64,000 bases of DNA from the IMG/VR virus record IMGVR_UViG_2778261161_000002, one strand, 5' to 3'. The notes under the pieces were generated by a model, which worked only from the letters and a program-made list of their open reading frames with translations, was not told the DNA's origin and searched no databases. Origin of the DNA: a virus. Its lineage: Duplodnaviria; Heunggongvirae; Uroviricota; Caudoviricetes. The translations under genes and the position numbers were made by a program. Shown here in pieces: positions 9,700 through 61,090 of the stretch (position 1 is its first letter; the number at the start of each line of letters is the position of its first letter).

Positions 9700-9708
9700 T
9701 GTTAGAAA
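9700..9708 (-). promoter_or_regulatory. Operator-like motif (copy 2, reverse orientation)
   Basis: ttgTGTTAGAAAAtt upstream of first immI-like module. Confidence 0.5.
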
Positions 9709-9929
9709 ATTAATTTGCTGTTTCTAAATCGGAATGTATGATCTGCATCATCGACTGAAGTCATCCATTGCTGAAATTTTTAGTTGATCTTCCATGTTTT
9801 CAGGCTTATATTCATGCCGTCGTAGCAAATTCTGCGACCAGGTTTGACAGCCTGAATGTTAGTGCGGACAACCGCAGATTTCCGATATTGCGGTATTTTT
9901 GTGTCCGTAAACCGCGTTACGCCCGAATT

Positions 9930-10030
9930 ATGGTGGGGCGTGATGGGGAGGCTTCGGCCTGCTGGTCTCACTAACGCCAGTCTGTCAACCCTGTCACGTC
10001 CTGCCACCTGTTTGACAGCGGGTAGCAGGT
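9930..10030 (+). ncRNA. Candidate c4-like antisense RNA region of immI module 1
   Basis: Direct repeats GTTTGACAGC at 9842 and 10010 flank a complementary CTGTCAAC at 9982, upstream of icd-like ORF; architecture as in P1 c4. Confidence 0.3.
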
Positions 10031-10058
10031 TGTTAAACCTGTTAGTGAGGCCGTAACT

Positions 10059-10283
10059 ATGGTTAATGCCAATCCTTGCTCACGTCCAGAATTCATCTGG
10101 CGTTTCCACTCCCTGCAAAAACACTGCGATCACTTCGCAATTGCCGCAACCGAAAAAGAAGCCCGTTCTCTGATCCCTGATCAGCATGGTGTTCTTACTG
10201 GTCGTTTCTCTACTTCCCCACAACCAAACACTAATCCCTGGTATCGCAATATTACCAATCCCGGCATTGCGGAGGCACACTGA
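10059..10283 (+). CDS. icd: Icd-like cell-division inhibitor, 74 aa
   Basis: Small ORF with EFIWRFHSLQKHCDHFAIAATEKEARS immediately upstream of and overlapping ant-like gene; paralog at 50053. Confidence 0.55.
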   Translation: MVNANPCSRPEFIWRFHSLQKHCDHFAIAATEKEARSLIPDQHGVLTGRFSTSPQPNTNPWYRNITNPGIAEAH

Positions 10284-10990
10284 TGGATATCTGCATTCTT
10301 GAAAAGCCATCAATGACCAGCATTGAGATCGCGGAGCTGGTGGGAAAACGTCATGACAATGTGAAGCGTACCATTGAAACATTAGCCGAATCCGGCGTTA
10401 TTGTTCGTCCTCAAATTGAGGATGAACCAAAAATAGATGTAATGGGGCGTTCTCGATTAATTCAGGTGTTCCGATTTAGCGACGAGCAAGGCAAACGAGA
10501 CAGTATCATTGTAGTCGCACAGCTTTGTCCTGAGTTTACTGCCCGGCTGGTGGACCGCTGGCGCGAACTGGAAGAACAAGTACGCCAGCCGTTGACCGAA
10601 ATAGAGATGATCGCCGCAATGGCTGCAAATGCAGTTCAGCAGCAAAAGCGGCTTCATGCTGTTGAGTCAAAGGTTAGCCAGGTCGCTGAAACCGTCGAGC
10701 AAATCAAGAAGGGCAATATGCCAGATGGTTACATTGGCTACCGCCAGCTGGCGGCGAAATGCGGCCTGACTGAAGCCAAATGTCGCAACCTTGTCAACGC
10801 TTACCGGATTCCCACCGATACACATGAGTTTTTAACTCCAGAGGGGGTATTGTCGCGTCGTTCCATCGTGGCCTTATCTCCCTTCATGAATGCTTTTAAC
10901 CGGATGATGTCGGAGGCTGAACACCGAGGAAAACGCTGGTATCACCCCAAAATGGGGCAATTCCAGGTGATCGGTTGGGGAGGTGAGTGA
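10283..10990 (+). CDS. ant: Antirepressor-like protein (Ant-like), 235 aa
   Basis: ATGA-coupled to icd-like ORF; shares conserved blocks GKRDSIIVVAQL.PEFTARLVDRWRELE and MP.GYIGYRQLAAKCGLTEAKCRNLVNAYRIPTDTHEFLTP with ORF 50268. Confidence 0.55.
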   Translation: MDICILEKPSMTSIEIAELVGKRHDNVKRTIETLAESGVIVRPQIEDEPKIDVMGRSRLIQVFRFSDEQGKRDSIIVVAQLCPEFTARLVDRWRELEEQVRQPLTEIEMIAAMAANAVQQQKRLHAVESKVSQVAETVEQIKKGNMPDGYIGYRQLAAKCGLTEAKCRNLVNAYRIPTDTHEFLTPEGVLSRRSIVALSPFMNAFNRMMSEAEHRGKRWYHPKMGQFQVIGWGGE

Positions 10991-21893: not shown

Positions 21894-21902
21894 TGTTAGA
21901 AA
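21894..21902 (-). promoter_or_regulatory. Operator-like motif (copy 5)
   Basis: aatgTGTTAGAAAtcta. Confidence 0.45.
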
Positions 21903-22049
21903 TCTAAAATCACAATTCGAATGTATTGATTGTGAAGATAACTTAACATAGAATTTTCCTTGCTGGTGGGCGGTACCCACGTTTCGCTTGCTGGGCTTGA
22001 TAGTCACTTATTGGTTATTGTTCTCCCACCAGCATTTAACAAATTAAAG

Positions 22050-23125: not shown

Positions 23126-23202
23126 GATGGTGTAGCTCAGTAGGATAGAGCAGCAGCCTTCTAAGCTGTCGGTCGGTGGTTCGAATCCATCCACCATCGC
23201 CA
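23126..23202 (+). tRNA. tRNA-Arg (anticodon TCT, reads AGA)
   Basis: Manual fold: acceptor GATGGTG/CACCATC, D-arm GCTC..GAGC, anticodon loop CTTCTAA, T-arm GGTGG-TTCGAAT-CCATC, CCA encoded. Confidence 0.8.
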
Positions 23203-23204
23203 AT

Positions 23205-23279
23205 GCCGGTTTAGCTCAGTTGGTAGAGCGCCTGCCTTGTAAGCAGGATGTCAGCGGTTCGAGTCCGTTAACCGGCACC
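23205..23279 (+). tRNA. tRNA-Thr (anticodon TGT)
   Basis: Acceptor GCCGGTT/AACCGGC, anticodon loop CTTGTAA, T-loop TTCGAGT. Confidence 0.8.
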
Positions 23280-24442: not shown

Positions 24443-24518
24443 GGCCCTTTAGCTCAGTGGTTAGAGCAGGCGACTCATAATCGCACGGTCACCGGTTCAA
24501 ATCCGGTAGGGGCCACCA
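24443..24518 (+). tRNA. tRNA-Ile2-like (anticodon CAT, AUA decoder) or tRNA-Met
   Basis: GGCCCTTTAGCTCAGTGGTTAGAGCAGGCGACTCATAATCGC... near-identical to E. coli ileX from memory; T-arm ACCGG-TTCAAAT-CCGGT; CCA. Confidence 0.8.
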
Positions 24519-25940: not shown

Positions 25941-25961
25941 CGTTAGATATTTAATATTAAT

Positions 25962-25970
25962 TTTCTAATA
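25962..25970 (+). promoter_or_regulatory. Operator-like motif variant TTTCTAATA (copy 7)
   Basis: aatTTTCTAATAtaatc with partial inverted partner cGTTAGATA at 25941. Confidence 0.4.
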
Positions 25971-29337: not shown

Positions 29338-30375
29338 TTACCAGAGCTTCGCGGCGTACTGCGTTTGGGGGAATGTGTATCCGTAACGTTCTTCGATTGC
29401 TTTGCCGTATTTTTTACGAGCTTCATTCAGTTTAATGCCGGTCAGGTCGTCTCCAGAGGCCATCATTACGTCTAACAATTCCAGATCCATTTTATCCAGC
29501 CTTGCCATTGCTTCACGTGATGTACGTATCTTACGTTCAATGATATGGCGAATAGCCGGATCGGCATCCTCCAGCATCTTAGCGGATTTCTGCTTAAGGC
29601 TTTCATTGCGAATATCGATGTTCCTTAAGATGTACGACTTCGCAACGTAGCTTGGCTGGTGTTTTTCCAGGTCACGAACACGATATAAGTTAAAATCGCC
29701 GAGAAGGCTGCAAGGTACCGATTCGACGCCAGAATAAATTGTAATGCTCCGGCGTTCACCAACATTATTGACAACGGGGATCGTTGTCTTCGGTAGTCTT
29801 GCGAAAACCAATGCGCCATGTGCGCCAACTCTAAAGCGAGAAAGGGCATTGCTGCCTTCGATGTTTGTTGTCAGCACAACATCTGTATATGCCTCTTTAC
29901 GCGCCCGGTAGATCTCGCCTTCAGGCTCAGCTTCAAAGAAGCGCTGTTCTTCTTCAAGAGCACCTACGATTTGAGAAAAAACCCTATTTTTCAGGCTTTT
30001 CTTTATGATTTTGTCGTATTTTTTTAGCAATTGTTCACGTGTAAATGTACGTGTTGTTGTAGCGCTTTGCACAACGACATGCGTGCTTTGATTGGTGTCC
30101 TCAATGATGAATGGGATCGGAGAATATACAGACTCAACAATGTTCGACGCTTTGCCGTCGGCATCGCGGCACATGTCAACGAAGGCTTTCCATTCAGCAA
30201 GACATTTTTCAGCTTCTTCTAATATGTTTTGGTCATGCGTTAATGCAACATGGCGGAATTCCTCGCCAGCATAACTGGTATCATGGAAAACAGAGTTTGC
30301 GACCACCAGCTCTTTCCACCGTTCAGCGGTTTGCAGGAACCGTTTGTACTCTTTCTCGATCGACTTCTTACTCAT
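29338..30375 (-). CDS. Putative C1-like immunity repressor, 345 aa
   Basis: Position between pacB and lox/cre as in P1; operator-like motif 20 bp upstream of its start; no family motif verified. Confidence 0.4.
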   Translation of the reverse strand: MSKKSIEKEYKRFLQTAERWKELVVANSVFHDTSYAGEEFRHVALTHDQNILEEAEKCLAEWKAFVDMCRDADGKASNIVESVYSPIPFIIEDTNQSTHVVVQSATTTRTFTREQLLKKYDKIIKKSLKNRVFSQIVGALEEEQRFFEAEPEGEIYRARKEAYTDVVLTTNIEGSNALSRFRVGAHGALVFARLPKTTIPVVNNVGERRSITIYSGVESVPCSLLGDFNLYRVRDLEKHQPSYVAKSYILRNIDIRNESLKQKSAKMLEDADPAIRHIIERKIRTSREAMARLDKMDLELLDVMMASGDDLTGIKLNEARKKYGKAIEERYGYTFPQTQYAAKLW

Positions 30376-30394
30376 TATTCCTACTCGATTTAGT

Positions 30395-30403
30395 TTTCTA
30401 ACA
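30395..30403 (+). promoter_or_regulatory. Operator-like motif (copy 8) at promoter of repressor-like gene
   Basis: agtTTTCTAACAtaaaatt; partial second copy TTTTAGAAAA at 30477..30488. Confidence 0.5.
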
Positions 30404-30769: not shown

Positions 30770-31798
30770 ATGAGTGAATTAATTATCTCTGGCAGTTCCG
30801 GTGGTTTTCTGCGCAACATTGGCAAAGAGTACCAGGAAGCCGCAGAAAACTTTATGCGGTTCATGAATGACCAGGGGGCTTATGCGCCGAATACTCTGCG
30901 CGACCTCCGGTTGGTGTTTCATTCCTGGGCGCGCTGGTGTCACGCTCGCCAGCTTGCCTGGTTTCCGATCTCACCAGAAATGGCCCGCGAGTATTTTCTT
31001 CAGCTGCATGATGCCGATCTGGCTTCGACCACCATTGATAAGCACTACGCCATGCTGAACATGCTGCTTTCGCATTGTGGCCTTCCGCCACTTTCGGATG
31101 ATAAAAGTGTTTCTCTGGCTATGCGGCGCATCCGGCGCGAAGCGGCAACTGAAAAAGGCGAACGAACAGGCCAGGCTATACCGCTTCGGTGGGACGATCT
31201 GAAACTGCTCGACGTCCTGTTGTCCAGGTCAGAACGGCTGGTGGACCTGCGCAACCTGGCTTTTCTCTTTGTTGCATACAATACGCTGATGCGTATGTCG
31301 GAAATATCGCGTATTCGTGTAGGTGATCTGGACCAAACAGGTGACACTGTCACGCTACATATTTCACACACGAAGACAATAACGACCGCCGCCGGGCTTG
31401 ATAAGGTGCTTTCCCGTCGCACTACCGCTGTGCTGAATGACTGGCTGGATGTTTCCGGGCTTCGCGAGCATCCTGACGCTGTGCTGTTCCCGCCGATACA
31501 CCGTAGCAATAAGGCCAGGATCACGATAACGCCCCTTACTGCACCTGCAATGGAGAAAATATTCAGCGACGCCTGGGTGTTGCTGAATAAAAGAGATGCT
31601 ACGCCAAACAAAGGAAGATACCGGACGTGGACCGGGCATAGTGCACGCGTCGGGGCCGCTATTGATATGGCTGAAAAGCAGGTGTCTATGGTGGAGATCA
31701 TGCAGGAAGGAACCTGGAAGAAACCGGAAACACTTATGCGGTATCTTCGCCGTGGCGGCGTGTCTGTGGGGGCTAATAGCCGCCTGATGGATTTGTAA
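30770..31798 (+). CDS. cre: Cre-like tyrosine recombinase, 342 aa
   Basis: Blocks WFPISPEMAREYFLQL, NMLLSHCGLPPLSDDKSVSLAMRRIRRE, IRNLAFLFVAYNTLMRMSEISRIRVGDL, WTGHSARVGAAIDMA, LMRYLRR align with P1 Cre including catalytic R, H, R, W, Y. Confidence 0.85.
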   Translation: MSELIISGSSGGFLRNIGKEYQEAAENFMRFMNDQGAYAPNTLRDLRLVFHSWARWCHARQLAWFPISPEMAREYFLQLHDADLASTTIDKHYAMLNMLLSHCGLPPLSDDKSVSLAMRRIRREAATEKGERTGQAIPLRWDDLKLLDVLLSRSERLVDLRNLAFLFVAYNTLMRMSEISRIRVGDLDQTGDTVTLHISHTKTITTAAGLDKVLSRRTTAVLNDWLDVSGLREHPDAVLFPPIHRSNKARITITPLTAPAMEKIFSDAWVLLNKRDATPNKGRYRTWTGHSARVGAAIDMAEKQVSMVEIMQEGTWKKPETLMRYLRRGGVSVGANSRLMDL

Positions 31799-31804
31799 AT
31801 TAAA

Positions 31805-31813
31805 TTTCTAACA
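31805..31813 (+). promoter_or_regulatory. Operator-like motif (copy 9)
   Basis: aaaTTTCTAACAcatct just after cre stop. Confidence 0.45.
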
Positions 31814-44012: not shown

Positions 44013-44021
44013 TGTTAGAAA
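44013..44021 (-). promoter_or_regulatory. Operator-like motif (copy 10) with inverted partner TTCTAAC at 44034..44041
   Basis: atatGTTAGAAAActaaaatcaatGTTCTAACg. Confidence 0.5.
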
Positions 44022-44068
44022 ACTAAAATCAATGTTCTAACGCATTTTTGAGTGCGTAAGTGATTTGA

Positions 44069-46975: not shown

Positions 46976-47475
46976 TTGTCAGCTCCTTTGCGAATCTGTT
47001 CCGCCCATTCTTCAAGGGATTTCTCCGCATATTCACCGGACAGGCCATCAATCGGGTGCGGTTCATTAGCCAACTCTTCTTTCGCTGACAGAATCATGCG
47101 CGTAACGTCGAAAACTTCACGTAAAGACTTATTGATAAATCCGTGGTTGAAAGCAGCAGCAAGACGGCTTGCGGTATAGTTAATCCCCTCGTTGCGAGCC
47201 TCCGCACGAATTTCAGCCAGGAAAGCATCGGTGACTGGCATATTTCCTGTTGCCTTCATGGCCTCCAAAATAACCAGAACGCCATCTCTCCCTGCCACCT
47301 CGCAGATAACCTCGGTGTTGTCGCCAACAACATCGCAGAATGCCTGAACTGCTTTACGAGCAAGTGCATTCTCCGCCGCCAGCGCAGCACACGCTTTCTC
47401 AAGTCGGGAAATTTCCGTTACATACTCAGCGTTACGCTCTGCCAGTTGTGCGGGCGTTAAACCTTCAGACTTCAT
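46972..47475 (-). CDS. Ead/Ea22-like protein, 167 aa
   Basis: TDAFLAEIRAEARNEGINYTASRLAAAFNHGFIN. Confidence 0.5.
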   Translation of the reverse strand: MKSEGLTPAQLAERNAEYVTEISRLEKACAALAAENALARKAVQAFCDVVGDNTEVICEVAGRDGVLVILEAMKATGNMPVTDAFLAEIRAEARNEGINYTASRLAAAFNHGFINKSLREVFDVTRMILSAKEELANEPHPIDGLSGEYAEKSLEEWAEQIRKGADK

Positions 47476-47782
47476 ACACTCTCCTTTCGAAATAAACGTA
47501 CTGATTAATCATGCCCAGGGGCATTTCGAGTTTTTCCGCGATCTCACGGCGGGGAACACCACACTGATGAAGCTGCCGTGCCAGTTCTATATCGCTCTGC
47601 CGGTATTTGGCTGACGGATGAAAGTCTCCTTTCAGAATCATGCTGATCCCCAACTCCCGCGCTTTAGTCCTGACGGCATCACCGGTACGACCGATCAGCT
47701 TCCCAATACTCTCGACCGTCATAGTTCCGGCGCACTGGCGGAGTATCATGATTTCTGCCCTTCCCCATCCCCGCCAGCTCAC
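47465..47782 (-). CDS. Putative HTH DNA-binding protein, 105 aa
   Basis: ORF track; two helix-rich basic segments. Confidence 0.4.
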   Translation of the reverse strand: MSWRGWGRAEIMILRQCAGTMTVESIGKLIGRTGDAVRTKARELGISMILKGDFHPSAKYRQSDIELARQLHQCGVPRREIAEKLEMPLGMINQYVYFERRVYEV

Positions 47783-48417
47783 GCAGAACTCCTTCTAACC
47801 AAAAGAACGCCATCTTCAGAAACAACGTTGCAGGACTTCAGGTAATTCATTGCCTCTTTCGGTAATGGATTCTTTGGATCGGCGTTTGCCAGGGATTTCG
47901 ATAACCTCATGATAAATTTGATCATTACCTTCTGGCGGAGCTTGTGCTCATGAGATAAAGAAAGGTAATAGGAAATGGTATGGGCTAAACGCTCACGAAG
48001 CTGTTCTGTGCCGTGATATACAGCAGCGATATCACGCAGTGCATTGACCAGTTCCCGGTAAATATGCGGAGCAACCTGGCATTCAATGTTGGTTGGTGAC
48101 TCATAAATTACAGTCAGCCCCAGCTTTTCAGCCAGCGCGTGCTCTGCACGAGCACCAACCGATTCTTCCCATCGATTGAGCAAATAAATCGCATCAGCAG
48201 AACGCACCATTGCCAGGCAAATATCCATGTATTCACTCTGGCAAAGGCCACCAGGTAACACCGCTGGATTCAGAACGATATGCCCTTCAGCCATCAGCTC
48301 GCTCGCTTTCGCATTAAACGCCGCACGGTTGTAATCTGGATAACCAGTCATCGGCCCCGCGATGTAAATTTTCAAAACACGTTTCACCATCAAAATTTCC
48401 CCAAAATCGTGACGCAA
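47779..48417 (-). CDS. DUF4406-like (nucleoside 2-deoxyribosyltransferase-like) domain protein
   Basis: KIYIAGPMTGYPDYN ... HIVLNP. Confidence 0.45.
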   Translation of the reverse strand: MRHDFGEILMVKRVLKIYIAGPMTGYPDYNRAAFNAKASELMAEGHIVLNPAVLPGGLCQSEYMDICLAMVRSADAIYLLNRWEESVGARAEHALAEKLGLTVIYESPTNIECQVAPHIYRELVNALRDIAAVYHGTEQLRERLAHTISYYLSLSHEHKLRQKVMIKFIMRLSKSLANADPKNPLPKEAMNYLKSCNVVSEDGVLLVRRSSA

Positions 48418-48584
48418 AACATAAGCACTGCGAAAAGCTCAATACCAAGTTCAAGTAGCGCCAACGCCCCGAAAAACAACACATAGAACAGGCCAATCTC
48501 ATTCACAGATGGCTGGTGGATCGCACTTAAAGCTATAAGCATCATGTCCTCCAAACAGTTATCAGGAATGATATTAATGTTTTG

Positions 48585-48593
48585 TGTTAGAAA
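48585..48593 (-). promoter_or_regulatory. Operator-like motif (copy 11), promoter region of leftward operon
   Basis: tttgTGTTAGAAAAtcaa. Confidence 0.5.
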
Positions 48594-48662
48594 ATCAATT
48601 TTGAATATCTAACTGTTTTGATCAATCATAGAAAAATAGCTGAAAAGTAAGAGGCAGCCATC

Positions 48663-49241
48663 ATGCAGAAACAGAGCTATTGGGAGAAACAGAGACAAAA
48701 AGCCATGCAAAAATTGGCTGACCCAGCCTGGCGAGAGGAACAAAGGGCAAAGCGCCTTCAACAAGCTCAACGCCAGCAGCAGCGAGCGAGAGAAAAAGCC
48801 GCATCGCCTGAATATCGGCAAAAGAAAATTGAAAAAGCAAAGCAATATGAACAGCGGAGAAAAGATAAAGCTGTATCCGCTCCGCCCAAAAAAACACGCA
48901 CGTCACGCGGCCTGAAGGGCAGATCACTCACAGCCGATGAACGCCGGATACAGACCGCTATCGGTACTCTCCCCTGCATTGCCTGCCATATTCACGGGCA
49001 ACATAGCCCAGTGGTATCCCTGCACCATATCTTCGGGAGAACGGCAGAGAACGCACATAAATATGTCCTCCCTTTGTGTAAATGGCACCACCAGTACGCA
49101 GCGCCAGCCGAGGTCCGAGAACAATATCCCTGGCTGGTCCCTGTTCATGCTGATGGAAAAATAGGCGGAAAAGCAGATTTCATACGGCACAATGCCGATG
49201 AAATGGCGTTGTATCAGATGGCGATTGAATTAATAAATTAG
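48663..49241 (+). CDS. Ref-like HNH endonuclease with basic disordered N-terminus
   Basis: K/R/Q-rich N-terminal 90 aa then CIACHIHG ... HHIFG ... CKWHH metal-binding pattern. Confidence 0.5.
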   Translation: MQKQSYWEKQRQKAMQKLADPAWREEQRAKRLQQAQRQQQRAREKAASPEYRQKKIEKAKQYEQRRKDKAVSAPPKKTRTSRGLKGRSLTADERRIQTAIGTLPCIACHIHGQHSPVVSLHHIFGRTAENAHKYVLPLCKWHHQYAAPAEVREQYPWLVPVHADGKIGGKADFIRHNADEMALYQMAIELIN

Positions 49242-49242
49242 T

Positions 49243-49251
49243 TTTCTAACA
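49243..49251 (+). promoter_or_regulatory. Operator-like motif (copy 12)
   Basis: agtTTTCTAACAtttta. Confidence 0.45.
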
Positions 49252-49879
49252 TTTTAAGTTGAATTGTAAATTTCTCCGATGTACATTCACTACCGATTGG
49301 CACACCGGTCAACTTTTTGAGACAAACTGTTTAGTTTTTCGTATTATTGCCCCCGCCATACCTATGGCGGTGCAATATAGGTGGCTGAAAAGCCCCCGTT
49401 GACTCACGGTGTTCCAGCCTTTATTGCGCCGCCACCAGACCGTGGAACAGTCGATGGCGGCTCCGAAAGCAAGGAGTCACTACACTATGAACAACTACAG
49501 TCTTTTCCCATCACTCGTCGTCCACCACTCACGCGATAATCTGCATTCTTTATTCGCGCTGGGGGAGTCAAAATGACTGTTCGCTACCTCAACTTTCAAA
49601 TCAAGAACATTACTGGCGGTTGCTATGACTGGTTTGTCACTCTCGGAAAAGAAGTGATTACCGGGAAGCTGGATGAAGTGAAAGCTAAAGCAATGGCCTA
49701 CGCCTGCAAGCAAGCCCGGAAGAAATCCGCCAAAGCATAAAATACTGACTGTTGCGCCCTGGCATTATCGTGGGGTATATTTCTACGGCACCTTAGAAAA
49801 ACGGGTGCCGGGATTGGAACCCCGGATAATGCAAAAGGCGACACAGACGCCGAAAGCGTCTTTTCTTGTGTCATGCCAT

Positions 49880-50030
49880 CGCACAGCCATACGTAGCGTT
49901 TAGCTCAGAGATCAATGGTAGTGCTGGCTGGGCTGCCGAAAGGCAGGCCGGTTCCCTTTTGCGCCGGTAGTTCCAACCCAGTCAGTGCTACCGCCATTGA
50001 GATTGGAACCTCACGCGGTAGCTCCTTAAA
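49880..50030 (+). ncRNA. Candidate c4-like antisense RNA region of immI module 2
   Basis: GATTGGAACC at 49812 and 50001 with partially complementary GTTCCAACC at 49970; tRNA-like TAGCTCAG segment. Confidence 0.3.
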
Positions 50031-50052
50031 TTAGCAAAAGGAGGCTGCCAAT

Positions 50053-50268
50053 ATGGCTACTATCCCTACCCCAACTCATTCTGAATTTATCTGGCGTTTC
50101 TATTCCTGCCAAAAACACCTGTATATCTGCGTCATGGCTGCAACCGAAGCAGAAGCTCGTTCATACCTTCCTGAAGAACCCTGCATTTTTGCCGCACGCT
50201 TCACTCTTGATGCGATGGAGATCCTCAATTACTGGAATCTGCCAATGAACTGCGTGGAGGTGCACTGA
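50053..50268 (+). CDS. icd: Icd-like protein, 71 aa (second copy)
   Basis: EFIWRFYSCQKHLYICVMAATEAEARS; paralog of 10059. Confidence 0.55.
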   Translation: MATIPTPTHSEFIWRFYSCQKHLYICVMAATEAEARSYLPEEPCIFAARFTLDAMEILNYWNLPMNCVEVH

Positions 50269-51209
50269 TGAATCTGTCCATCTCTCAAAAAGCGACAATG
50301 ACCAGCATTGAGATCGCGGAACTGGTAGGAAGTCGCCAAGATAGTGTGAAGAGAACTATCGAAACACTGGCTAAAAAGAGTGTGATCCAATTTCCACAAT
50401 CTGTGGAAATTGAAAATAAACAATCAGTTGGCCCTCGTCGATTTTCCAAGGCTTACATCTTTGAAGGCGAACAAGGCAAGCGCGATAGTATCATTGTCGT
50501 CGCACAGCTCTCTCCGGAATTCACCGCCCGGCTGGTGGACCGCTGGCGCGAACTGGAGAATGCCAGGGGACCGTTAAAATCAAAAGCCGAAATCCTGGCT
50601 GAAATGGCGCAAATGCATCTTGAGCATGAACGCCGGATCAACGCCGTAAATGCCCAGGTAGCCGAGGTATCAGCACAAGTATCGATGGTCGCTGAAACAC
50701 TCGAGCAAATAAAGAAAGGCAATATGCCGGAAGGCTACATTGGCTACCGCCAGCTGGCGGCGAAATGCGGCCTGACTGAAGCCAAATGTCGCAACCTGGT
50801 TAACGCTTACCGGATACCCACTGATACGCATGAGTTTTTGACTCCCGACGGTTTGCTTGCGCGACGCTCAATTGTGGCCCTGGCCCCCTTCCGGAAAGCC
50901 TTTAAGCAGGTTATGTCGGAGGCAGAACCACGCAACAAACGCTGGTATCATCCAAAGATGGGGATGTTTCAGGCAATCCACCATCCTGTGCCTGAAAGTC
51001 CAAAGGCAAACCTGTCGTTGCATACCGCCAGAGAGAGGATTAAAACAGGGTATGCAATCGTATGCCGTCGAGCATCTTGGCCTGAAGGTGTATGGGTATG
51101 GCCCGAAGGTGGATCACGAAAGCACTGGCGCACTATCCGGGATGGGAAAATCCATGCGATTGATTTAGCTCCAGAGGATGTTGTTGCTACGGACTGGATT
51201 GTTAGTTAA
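50268..51209 (+). CDS. ant: Antirepressor-like protein (second copy), 313 aa
   Basis: Shares conserved blocks with ORF 10283 including a 56-bp identical DNA stretch. Confidence 0.55.
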   Translation: MNLSISQKATMTSIEIAELVGSRQDSVKRTIETLAKKSVIQFPQSVEIENKQSVGPRRFSKAYIFEGEQGKRDSIIVVAQLSPEFTARLVDRWRELENARGPLKSKAEILAEMAQMHLEHERRINAVNAQVAEVSAQVSMVAETLEQIKKGNMPEGYIGYRQLAAKCGLTEAKCRNLVNAYRIPTDTHEFLTPDGLLARRSIVALAPFRKAFKQVMSEAEPRNKRWYHPKMGMFQAIHHPVPESPKANLSLHTARERIKTGYAIVCRRASWPEGVWVWPEGGSRKHWRTIRDGKIHAIDLAPEDVVATDWIVS

Positions 51210-61044: not shown

Positions 61045-61081
61045 AAAATGCACCCATTTATGTTAGATAATTAACATGCAT

Positions 61082-61090
61082 TTTCTAACA
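61082..61090 (+). promoter_or_regulatory. Operator-like motif (copy 13) with inverted partner TGTTAGATA at 61061..61069
   Basis: tttaTGTTAGATAattaacatgcaTTTTCTAACAtaaat immediately upstream of rdgC. Confidence 0.5.

Follow-up and report, generated by a model that had tools for sequence, protein, structure and literature searches.

A Ref-family nuclease gene in a D6-like phage-plasmid lies between two putative C1 operators that probably serve different transcription units

We found that a rightward gene in a D6-like phage-plasmid encodes a clear homolog of the P1 nuclease Ref and is bracketed by two copies of a 17-bp motif that recurs through the genome and very probably is the operator of a D6-type C1 repressor. 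In the reading we favour, to which we assign a probability of about 0.8, this is the ref cassette of a D6-like phage-plasmid, in which C1 would act on ref at the 5' operator and the 3' operator would belong to the transcription unit downstream. The window is the whole stretch of viral DNA that was analysed (64,000 nucleotides, one strand, 5' to 3', from IMG/VR record IMGVR_UViG_2778261161_000002), and all coordinates refer to it unless another record is named. The ref-plus-motif arrangement first noticed by a sequence-only reading was confirmed as real and its interpretation as Ref and operators was supported, with one refinement, namely that each operator probably serves a transcription unit of its own. 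Both the ref gene and the two-operator architecture are already known, from the annotation of phage D6 and from Oref and Omat of P1.

The gene, its parts and its left-hand neighbours are as follows:

48663-49241, + strand: ref open reading frame, 192 aa, ATG start and TAG stop
48663-48917, + strand: N-terminal basic segment, ref codons 1-85, delimited by composition; the predicted counterpart of the unstructured N-terminus of P1 Ref
48918-49241, + strand: HNH (His-Me finger) nuclease core, codons 86-192 plus TAG, delimited by PF16786 and the P1 alignment
48390-48542, - strand: first small open reading frame of the leftward operon, hydrophobic product
47465-47782: helix-turn-helix protein gene of the leftward operon

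A Shine-Dalgarno sequence, AAGAGG, lies at 48649-48654, 8 nt 5' of the ref ATG. The gene had been described as isolated, which is true on its left, where the neighbour is a divergent leftward operon whose first gene is the small open reading frame starting at an ATG near 48542 (the D6 counterpart of this operon is orf88-orf101), and untrue on its right, where co-directional genes follow after a gap of 212 bp.

Profile searches identified the product as a Ref-like nuclease, as had been proposed from its residues, with positive matches to Pfam PF16786 RecA_dep_nuc (118.9 bits against a cut-off of 26.9, E = 1.3e-34, residues 90-191 on profile positions 2-102 of 103), to PHROG 2321, 'Ref-like RecA filament endonuclease' (3.4e-82, residues 2-192), and to the P1 Ref crystal-structure chain PDB 3PLW (E = 7.8e-51, with the core aligned without gaps). 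Direct alignment to P1 Ref, the check that the earlier reading had suggested, gave 64% identity over the nuclease core and 36% over the N-terminal part, which is about 9 residues longer in the window through an insertion. The predicted HNH-like core is confirmed: C105 and C108 (CxxC), H121, H122, C139, H142, H143 and H162 are invariant in comparison with P1 Ref and D6 Ref, and H143 and H162 align with H134 and H153 of P1 Ref, which coordinate zinc in the active site and whose double replacement by alanine inactivates the nuclease (PMC4713147). The long basic N-terminus is likewise borne out by composition, residues 1-85 containing 27 K/R, 9 D/E, 15 Q and only 9 strongly hydrophobic residues; the 76-residue N-terminus of P1 Ref, which is unstructured and binds DNA (PMC4330346), contains 25 K/R. 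Homology with P1 Ref suggests that the N-terminus of the window protein would be disordered in the same way and that its nuclease activity would depend on RecA.

The low identity of the N-terminal part, together with a search of the curated NCBIfam models that returned no family for the Ref protein at E <= 0.01, might instead point to a generic HNH or homing endonuclease that does not depend on RecA. However, the Pfam match is to the specific RecA_dep_nuc family rather than to a general HNH family, the core keeps 64% identity and every Cys and His ligand, and the two-part architecture and genomic setting are those of P1, so we regard a generic nuclease as having a negligible chance of being correct. 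Since NCBIfam gave no match, the PGAP name 'Ref family recombination enhancement nuclease', found on plasmids, must stem from another rule.

DNA identity shows the window to be a D6-like phage-plasmid of E. coli that belongs to the P1 family. The ref region, both operators included, is 98.5% identical in DNA to phage D6 (NC_050154 / MF356679), and the Ref protein is 97% identical to the product of D6 orf87, which the D6 record labels 'similar to P1 gene ref'. Four E. coli plasmids (CP057047, CP057052, CP057059 and NZ_OY754373) are 100% identical over 3 kb, and the full ref cassette occurs in at least 118 plasmid records, in most of which the product bears the 'Ref family' name. Phage D6 and the D6-like plasmids thus carry essentially the same ref gene, nothing of substance being different, and the D6 label and the plasmid records together mean that the gene was already known. 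No operator features are annotated in the D6 records examined.

Two diverged loci were used for comparison, plasmid CP058654, which is 86% identical overall, and the distant Enterobacter hormaechei plasmid NZ_CP085744. In the latter, ref probably starts upstream of the annotated position 1176; with an in-frame ATG at 1125 (Ref, 1125-1748), the N-terminus reads MAEQTQWEKQREK, parallel to MQKQSYWEKQRQK in the window. To the left of ref in this plasmid, a small unannotated hydrophobic open reading frame seems by eye to resemble the window gene at 48390-48542.

The motifs noticed on either side of ref proved to be real and far beyond chance. They form an inverted pair, with exact coordinates 48585-48601 on the + strand (TGTTAGAAAATCAATTT) and 49235-49251 on the - strand (TGTTAGAAAACTAATTT). 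With up to three mismatches allowed, the consensus TGTTAGAAAAYYAATTT matches the window 14 times where 0.93 matches are expected, a count that none of 100 shuffles attains, and a weight matrix made from the sites scores 14 of them at 15 bits or more, the expectation from Markov shuffles being 0.6. D6 carries the same sites, all of them intergenic according to its annotation, with two overlapping a gene end by 2-7 nt. Their placement, and the gene of the presumed repressor, are as follows:

30387-30403: motif site 12 nt before the c1 ATG
Before lpa and before repL: motif sites (genes from the D6 annotation)
Before each of the two C4-RNA/icd/ant modules: motif sites
Before hrdC-dmt and before pdcB: motif sites (genes from the D6 annotation)
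Before pmgS and just after pmgS: motif sites (genes from the D6 annotation)
At the end of the Cre-like recombinase gene: motif site
On both sides of ref: motif sites
29338-30375, - strand: c1, the presumed trans-acting repressor, 100% identical to D6 C1

At four loci two sites stand as an inverted pair with a 13-bp offset and form a 30-bp palindrome, at 25941-25970 (starts 25941/25954), 44013-44042 (44013/44026), 48585-48614 (48585/48598) and 61061-61090 (61061/61074). The geometry differs slightly from that of Oc1ab, the one P1 bivalent operator compared, in which the offset is 11 bp and the palindrome 28 bp.

Two good sites of this set stand where an operator is less expected. The site at 21894-21910 lies 3 nt past the end of the pmgS homolog and faces a gene-free stretch ahead of tRNA genes; Rfam places three tRNA genes in the window, at 23126-23277 and 24443-24515, and the corresponding region of the D6 record has tRNA-Ser, tRNA-Thr and tRNA-Asn. 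The site at 31797-31813 precedes the orf117-dut operon and overlaps the stop codon with which the Cre-like (Dre) recombinase gene ends; it is another operator on a stop codon, as at ref.

The P1 record annotates experimentally derived C1 operators at matching places, namely Oc1 at c1, Olpa at lpa, and Oref and Omat at ref, and P1 ref is a C1-repressed lytic gene, with dmt and kilA also under C1 control (PMC4713147). Because the motif sites head the set of genes that C1 controls in P1, the motif very probably serves as operator for the D6-type C1, which is remotely homologous to P1 C1; position and homology are what point to C1 as the protein that would bind it. The window C1 and P1 C1 both fall in PHROG 1678 (2.8e-170 and 2.6e-140, respectively) and share 21% identity by BLASTP (E = 2e-8), and the D6-type protein scores 25 bits against the NCBI phage_rep_C1 equivalog model NF041318, for which the cut-off is 500. 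The motif consensus agrees with the P1 C1 consensus ATTGCTCTAATAAATTT at 9 of 17 positions, mostly in the 3' half, indicating that these are not P1-immunity operators and have a different specificity. A diverged repressor paired with a diverged operator fits a different immunity specificity. PHROG 1678 is labelled 'unknown function' even though P1 C1 is a well-studied repressor.

The remoteness of the two C1 proteins, and the presence in the window of other DNA-binding proteins such as the helix-turn-helix protein encoded at 47465-47782, could be taken to mean that a regulator other than C1 binds the motif, or that the motif is a late-promoter element. We consider this highly improbable. The sites stand where C1 operators have been defined by experiment in P1 (at c1, lpa, ref and the 3' end of ref), and they precede early and immunity genes, among them lpa, the gene of the late-promoter activator, rather than structural genes. 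They also occur in both orientations and as palindromic pairs, unlike a directional promoter element. Full-text literature searches with the motif string and for D6-like operators returned unrelated papers only, some likely P1 and D6 sources lying outside their reach, and the D6-type operator consensus is the only item presented here that may be undocumented.

With the motif read as a C1 operator, the features upstream of ref are as follows:

48585-48601, + strand: putative operator half-site a, a perfect consensus match (25.1 bits), starting 78 nt 5' of the ref ATG
48598-48614, - strand: putative half-site b, AGTTAGATATTCAAAAT, the weaker inverted partner (13.6 bits)
48601-48629, + strand: predicted ref promoter TTGAAT-17-AATCAT, an 8/12 hexamer match, with its -35 box (48601-48606) inside the bivalent operator
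48571-48598, - strand: predicted promoter of the leftward operon, TTGATT-16-TAATAT, with its -35 box (48598-48593) inside half-site a

Half-sites a and b together make up the 30-bp palindromic, or 'bivalent', operator at 48585-48614. Half-site a is invariant in D6 and CP058654 and nearly so in the Enterobacter plasmid, its flanks diverging, and in CP058654 the partner half-site is nearly perfect, with 2 mismatches. A second block, TGATC.A.CATA, which holds the predicted -10 box of ref, does not vary among four diverged loci, unlike the sequence that follows it. In alignments with CP058654 and the Enterobacter plasmid, the operator block and TGATC.A.CATA stand out as invariant between diverged sequence on both sides. 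A promoter scan of the single sequence found none at ref, and a relaxed scan at 8/12 yields about 0.93 chance matches per 157 bp in AT-rich DNA; the promoter calls therefore rely only on hexamers conserved in the diverged loci. The hexamers, weak by themselves, would put back-to-back -35 boxes of the ref promoter and the leftward promoter at the centre of the palindrome, so that one operator would silence both. Repression of ref would then rest mainly on this upstream site, held in common with the divergent leftward operon.

The second operator and the unit that follows it are composed of these features:

49235-49251, - strand: putative monovalent operator, a perfect consensus match (27.4 bits), over the last codon and stop of ref
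49259-49287, + strand: predicted promoter of the downstream unit, TTGAAT-17-TACATT, 7 nt past the operator
49360-49439, + strand: C4-like antisense RNA candidate, first element of the downstream unit (RF01695, 40.2 bits, below the gathering score of 45; E = 4.8e-6 in a local search)
49788-49866, + strand: isrK-like RNA (Rfam, gathering-level, 59.4 bits)
49911-49998, + strand: canonical C4 RNA (Rfam, gathering-level)
50053-50268, + strand: icd (open reading frame; D6 annotation)
50268-51209, + strand: antirepressor gene, ant (open reading frame; D6 annotation)

Both CP058654 and the Enterobacter plasmid conserve the 3' operator; in the latter it lies within the last ref codons and is followed, after 7 nt, by TTGACC-17-TACATT. 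The predicted promoter hexamers of the downstream unit thus keep the same 7-nt spacing from the operator in the window and in the Enterobacter plasmid, and the spacer sequence is unrelated. The C4-like RNA candidate begins about 70 nt past the predicted promoter and is followed by two small open reading frames. The window contains two such immunity-I-like modules, at 9700-10990 and 49235-51209, each with a C1-type operator, a C4-family RNA, icd and an antirepressor gene; the two share about 72% DNA identity in their protein-coding parts and have unrelated leaders. By this arrangement, the second immunity-I-like unit most likely begins with the 3' operator, just as mat follows Omat in P1.

Two other candidates in this region were discarded: an alternative promoter TTGAAT-16-TAACAT (49225-49252), overlapped by the 3' operator, was set aside as it is not conserved in the Enterobacter locus, and a terminator-like hairpin at 49295-49310 folds no better than shuffled sequence. 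The candidate at 49360-49439 would be a second C4-like RNA, upstream of the canonical C4 of module 2, and it overlaps the 40-aa 'orf86' of D6, which therefore may not be a real gene. The isrK match (isrK being a Salmonella Hfq-binding sRNA) falls at the place that the c4-a1b1 target element has in module 1, and at 49788-49866 it is overlapped by a c4-a1b1 match, though a weak one (22.4 bits); the isrK and c4-a1b1 families may be two names for one kind of C4-target leader.

The same bracket is found at other Ref loci. In the P1 record, Oref (formerly Op2a) occupies 1962-1978, 115 nt before the ref ATG, and Omat (formerly Op2b) occupies 2628-2645, overlaps the ref stop codon at 2635-2637 and is assigned to mat, the next gene. 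The record puts Omat on the minus strand; read on the plus strand, its sequence agrees with the C1 consensus at 13 of 17 positions (2628-2644), in the orientation that Oref also has. In Cronobacter phage JK004, one P1-type site lies at -114 from the ref ATG and another starts 7 nt before the stop, as in P1, and an S. arizonae plasmid combines a P1-type site at -112 with a degenerate one over the ref stop codon. The D6-type loci carry their own operator type at -78 or -75, and again on or just inside the ref stop. JK004 and the S. arizonae plasmid had been considered as a third immunity type, which was rejected when both turned out to carry P1-type operators, so the comparison covers only two specificities. 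These two specificities occupy the same two places around ref, and the bracket, by this comparison, is ancestral and is the one known from P1.

This constancy gives some weight to the idea that both operators act on ref, with C1 bound at the 5' and 3' sites forming a loop over about 650 bp and the 3' site being part of the ref module. C1-mediated looping between operators occurs in P1. An operator of the matching immunity type sits at the ref stop in P1, JK004, the S. arizonae plasmid and all D6-type loci, although the gene downstream of ref varies, from Mat in P1 through an unrelated PHROG 27888 protein in JK004 to the immunity-I-like unit in the window. Moreover, neither in the window nor in P1 does the 3' site cover the -35 box of the neighbour, lying upstream of it instead. 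The same two points weigh against assigning the 3' operator to the downstream unit: an operator ending about 7 nt before a -35 box is unusual for simple occlusion, and its retention on the ref stop where downstream genes differ could mean that it serves ref. However, the P1 record gives Omat to mat; the D6-type loci keep both the hexamers that follow the 3' operator and their distance from it, as would be expected of a site serving that promoter; and the 3' site, direct in P1, is inverted in the window. The distance between the two sites, furthermore, ranges from 644 to 679 bp and follows the length of the gene, so that helical phasing is not kept. We judge it unlikely that C1-C1 contact across ref contributes to its repression; what speaks for it is the persistence of the 3' site on the ref stop, upstream of the -35 box and next to varied genes. 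The proposal of repressor control that was drawn from the bracketing is supported with one refinement: both motifs belong to the genome-wide operator set and P1 ref is flanked likewise, but the bracket probably does not mean double control of ref, since the 3' site most likely serves the downstream unit.

These data are consistent with a scheme in which the 5' operator governs ref and the 3' operator governs its neighbour. In the lysogen, as a plasmid prophage, the D6-type C1 encoded at 29338-30375 would bind the 30-bp operator at 48585-48614 and, through this one operator over the predicted back-to-back -35 boxes, would shut off both ref and the leftward early operon. Inactivation of C1 at induction would allow ref to be transcribed as a lytic-cycle gene, and the Ref nuclease, by homology with P1 Ref, would bind DNA through its basic tail and cut with its core only DNA that is bound by a RecA filament. 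The 3' operator would be a separate, single C1 site governing the promoter 7 nt downstream, which would drive the second immunity-I-like unit.

As an enzyme, Ref has been characterised, and it attracts interest both for use as a programmable nuclease guided by RecA and for its part in phage-antibiotic synergy. Both E. coli and Salmonella commonly carry D6-like phage-plasmids, more than 100 plasmid records holding the ref cassette, and a defined D6-type C1 operator consensus would let the whole repressor-controlled gene set be annotated, which is absent from the public records examined. The two-operator layout around ref is conserved between P1-family branches of different repressor specificity. 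A bolder proposal would be that the TGTTAGAAAAYYAATTT operator, in its single form and as 30-bp palindromes, is undescribed and that the stop-codon operator is a conserved part of ref control by which C1 encloses a toxic nuclease gene in a loop. We think this doubtful; if it were true, each of two heteroimmune branches of the P1 family would be retaining an operator of its own specificity on either side of ref, regardless of the gene that comes next. Beyond tidy annotation, the import of the present finding is small.

The closest characterised counterpart of the cassette is that of P1. Both Ref proteins combine a basic N-terminal tail with an HNH core bearing identical Cys and His ligands, and both genes have one operator upstream and one on the stop codon in a plasmid prophage of the P1 family with a C1-type repressor. 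The arrangements differ in detail. The upstream site is palindromic and bivalent at -78 in the window and monovalent at -115 in P1. In the window the 3' site faces the opposite way from the 5' site, whereas both point in the same direction in P1. Ref is flanked by the divergent early operon and the immunity-I-like unit in the window and by cre-c8 and mat in P1. A terminator-like leader hairpin with a U-run precedes the ref ATG in P1 and JK004 (z = -2.3 and -2.7, respectively) and is absent from the window, where a search of the ref leader for a P1-like attenuator found none, the best fold having -5 kcal/mol and z = +1.2.

The downstream unit is comparable to the immunity-I region of P1, in which a C1 operator is followed in order by a promoter, c4 RNA, icd and ant. 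Like that region, it has C4-family RNAs, icd and an antirepressor gene behind a C1-type operator, but this second copy in the window is longer, having the sub-threshold C4-like RNA, two small open reading frames and the isrK-like RNA before its canonical C4, and its operator ends short of the -35 box, on the upstream side, instead of covering it. Outside the P1 family, Gp16 of Staphylococcus phage PhiNM1 is a phage nuclease reported to be RecA-dependent (PMC12817073); it belongs to another host and phage group and would be a functional analogue of Ref.
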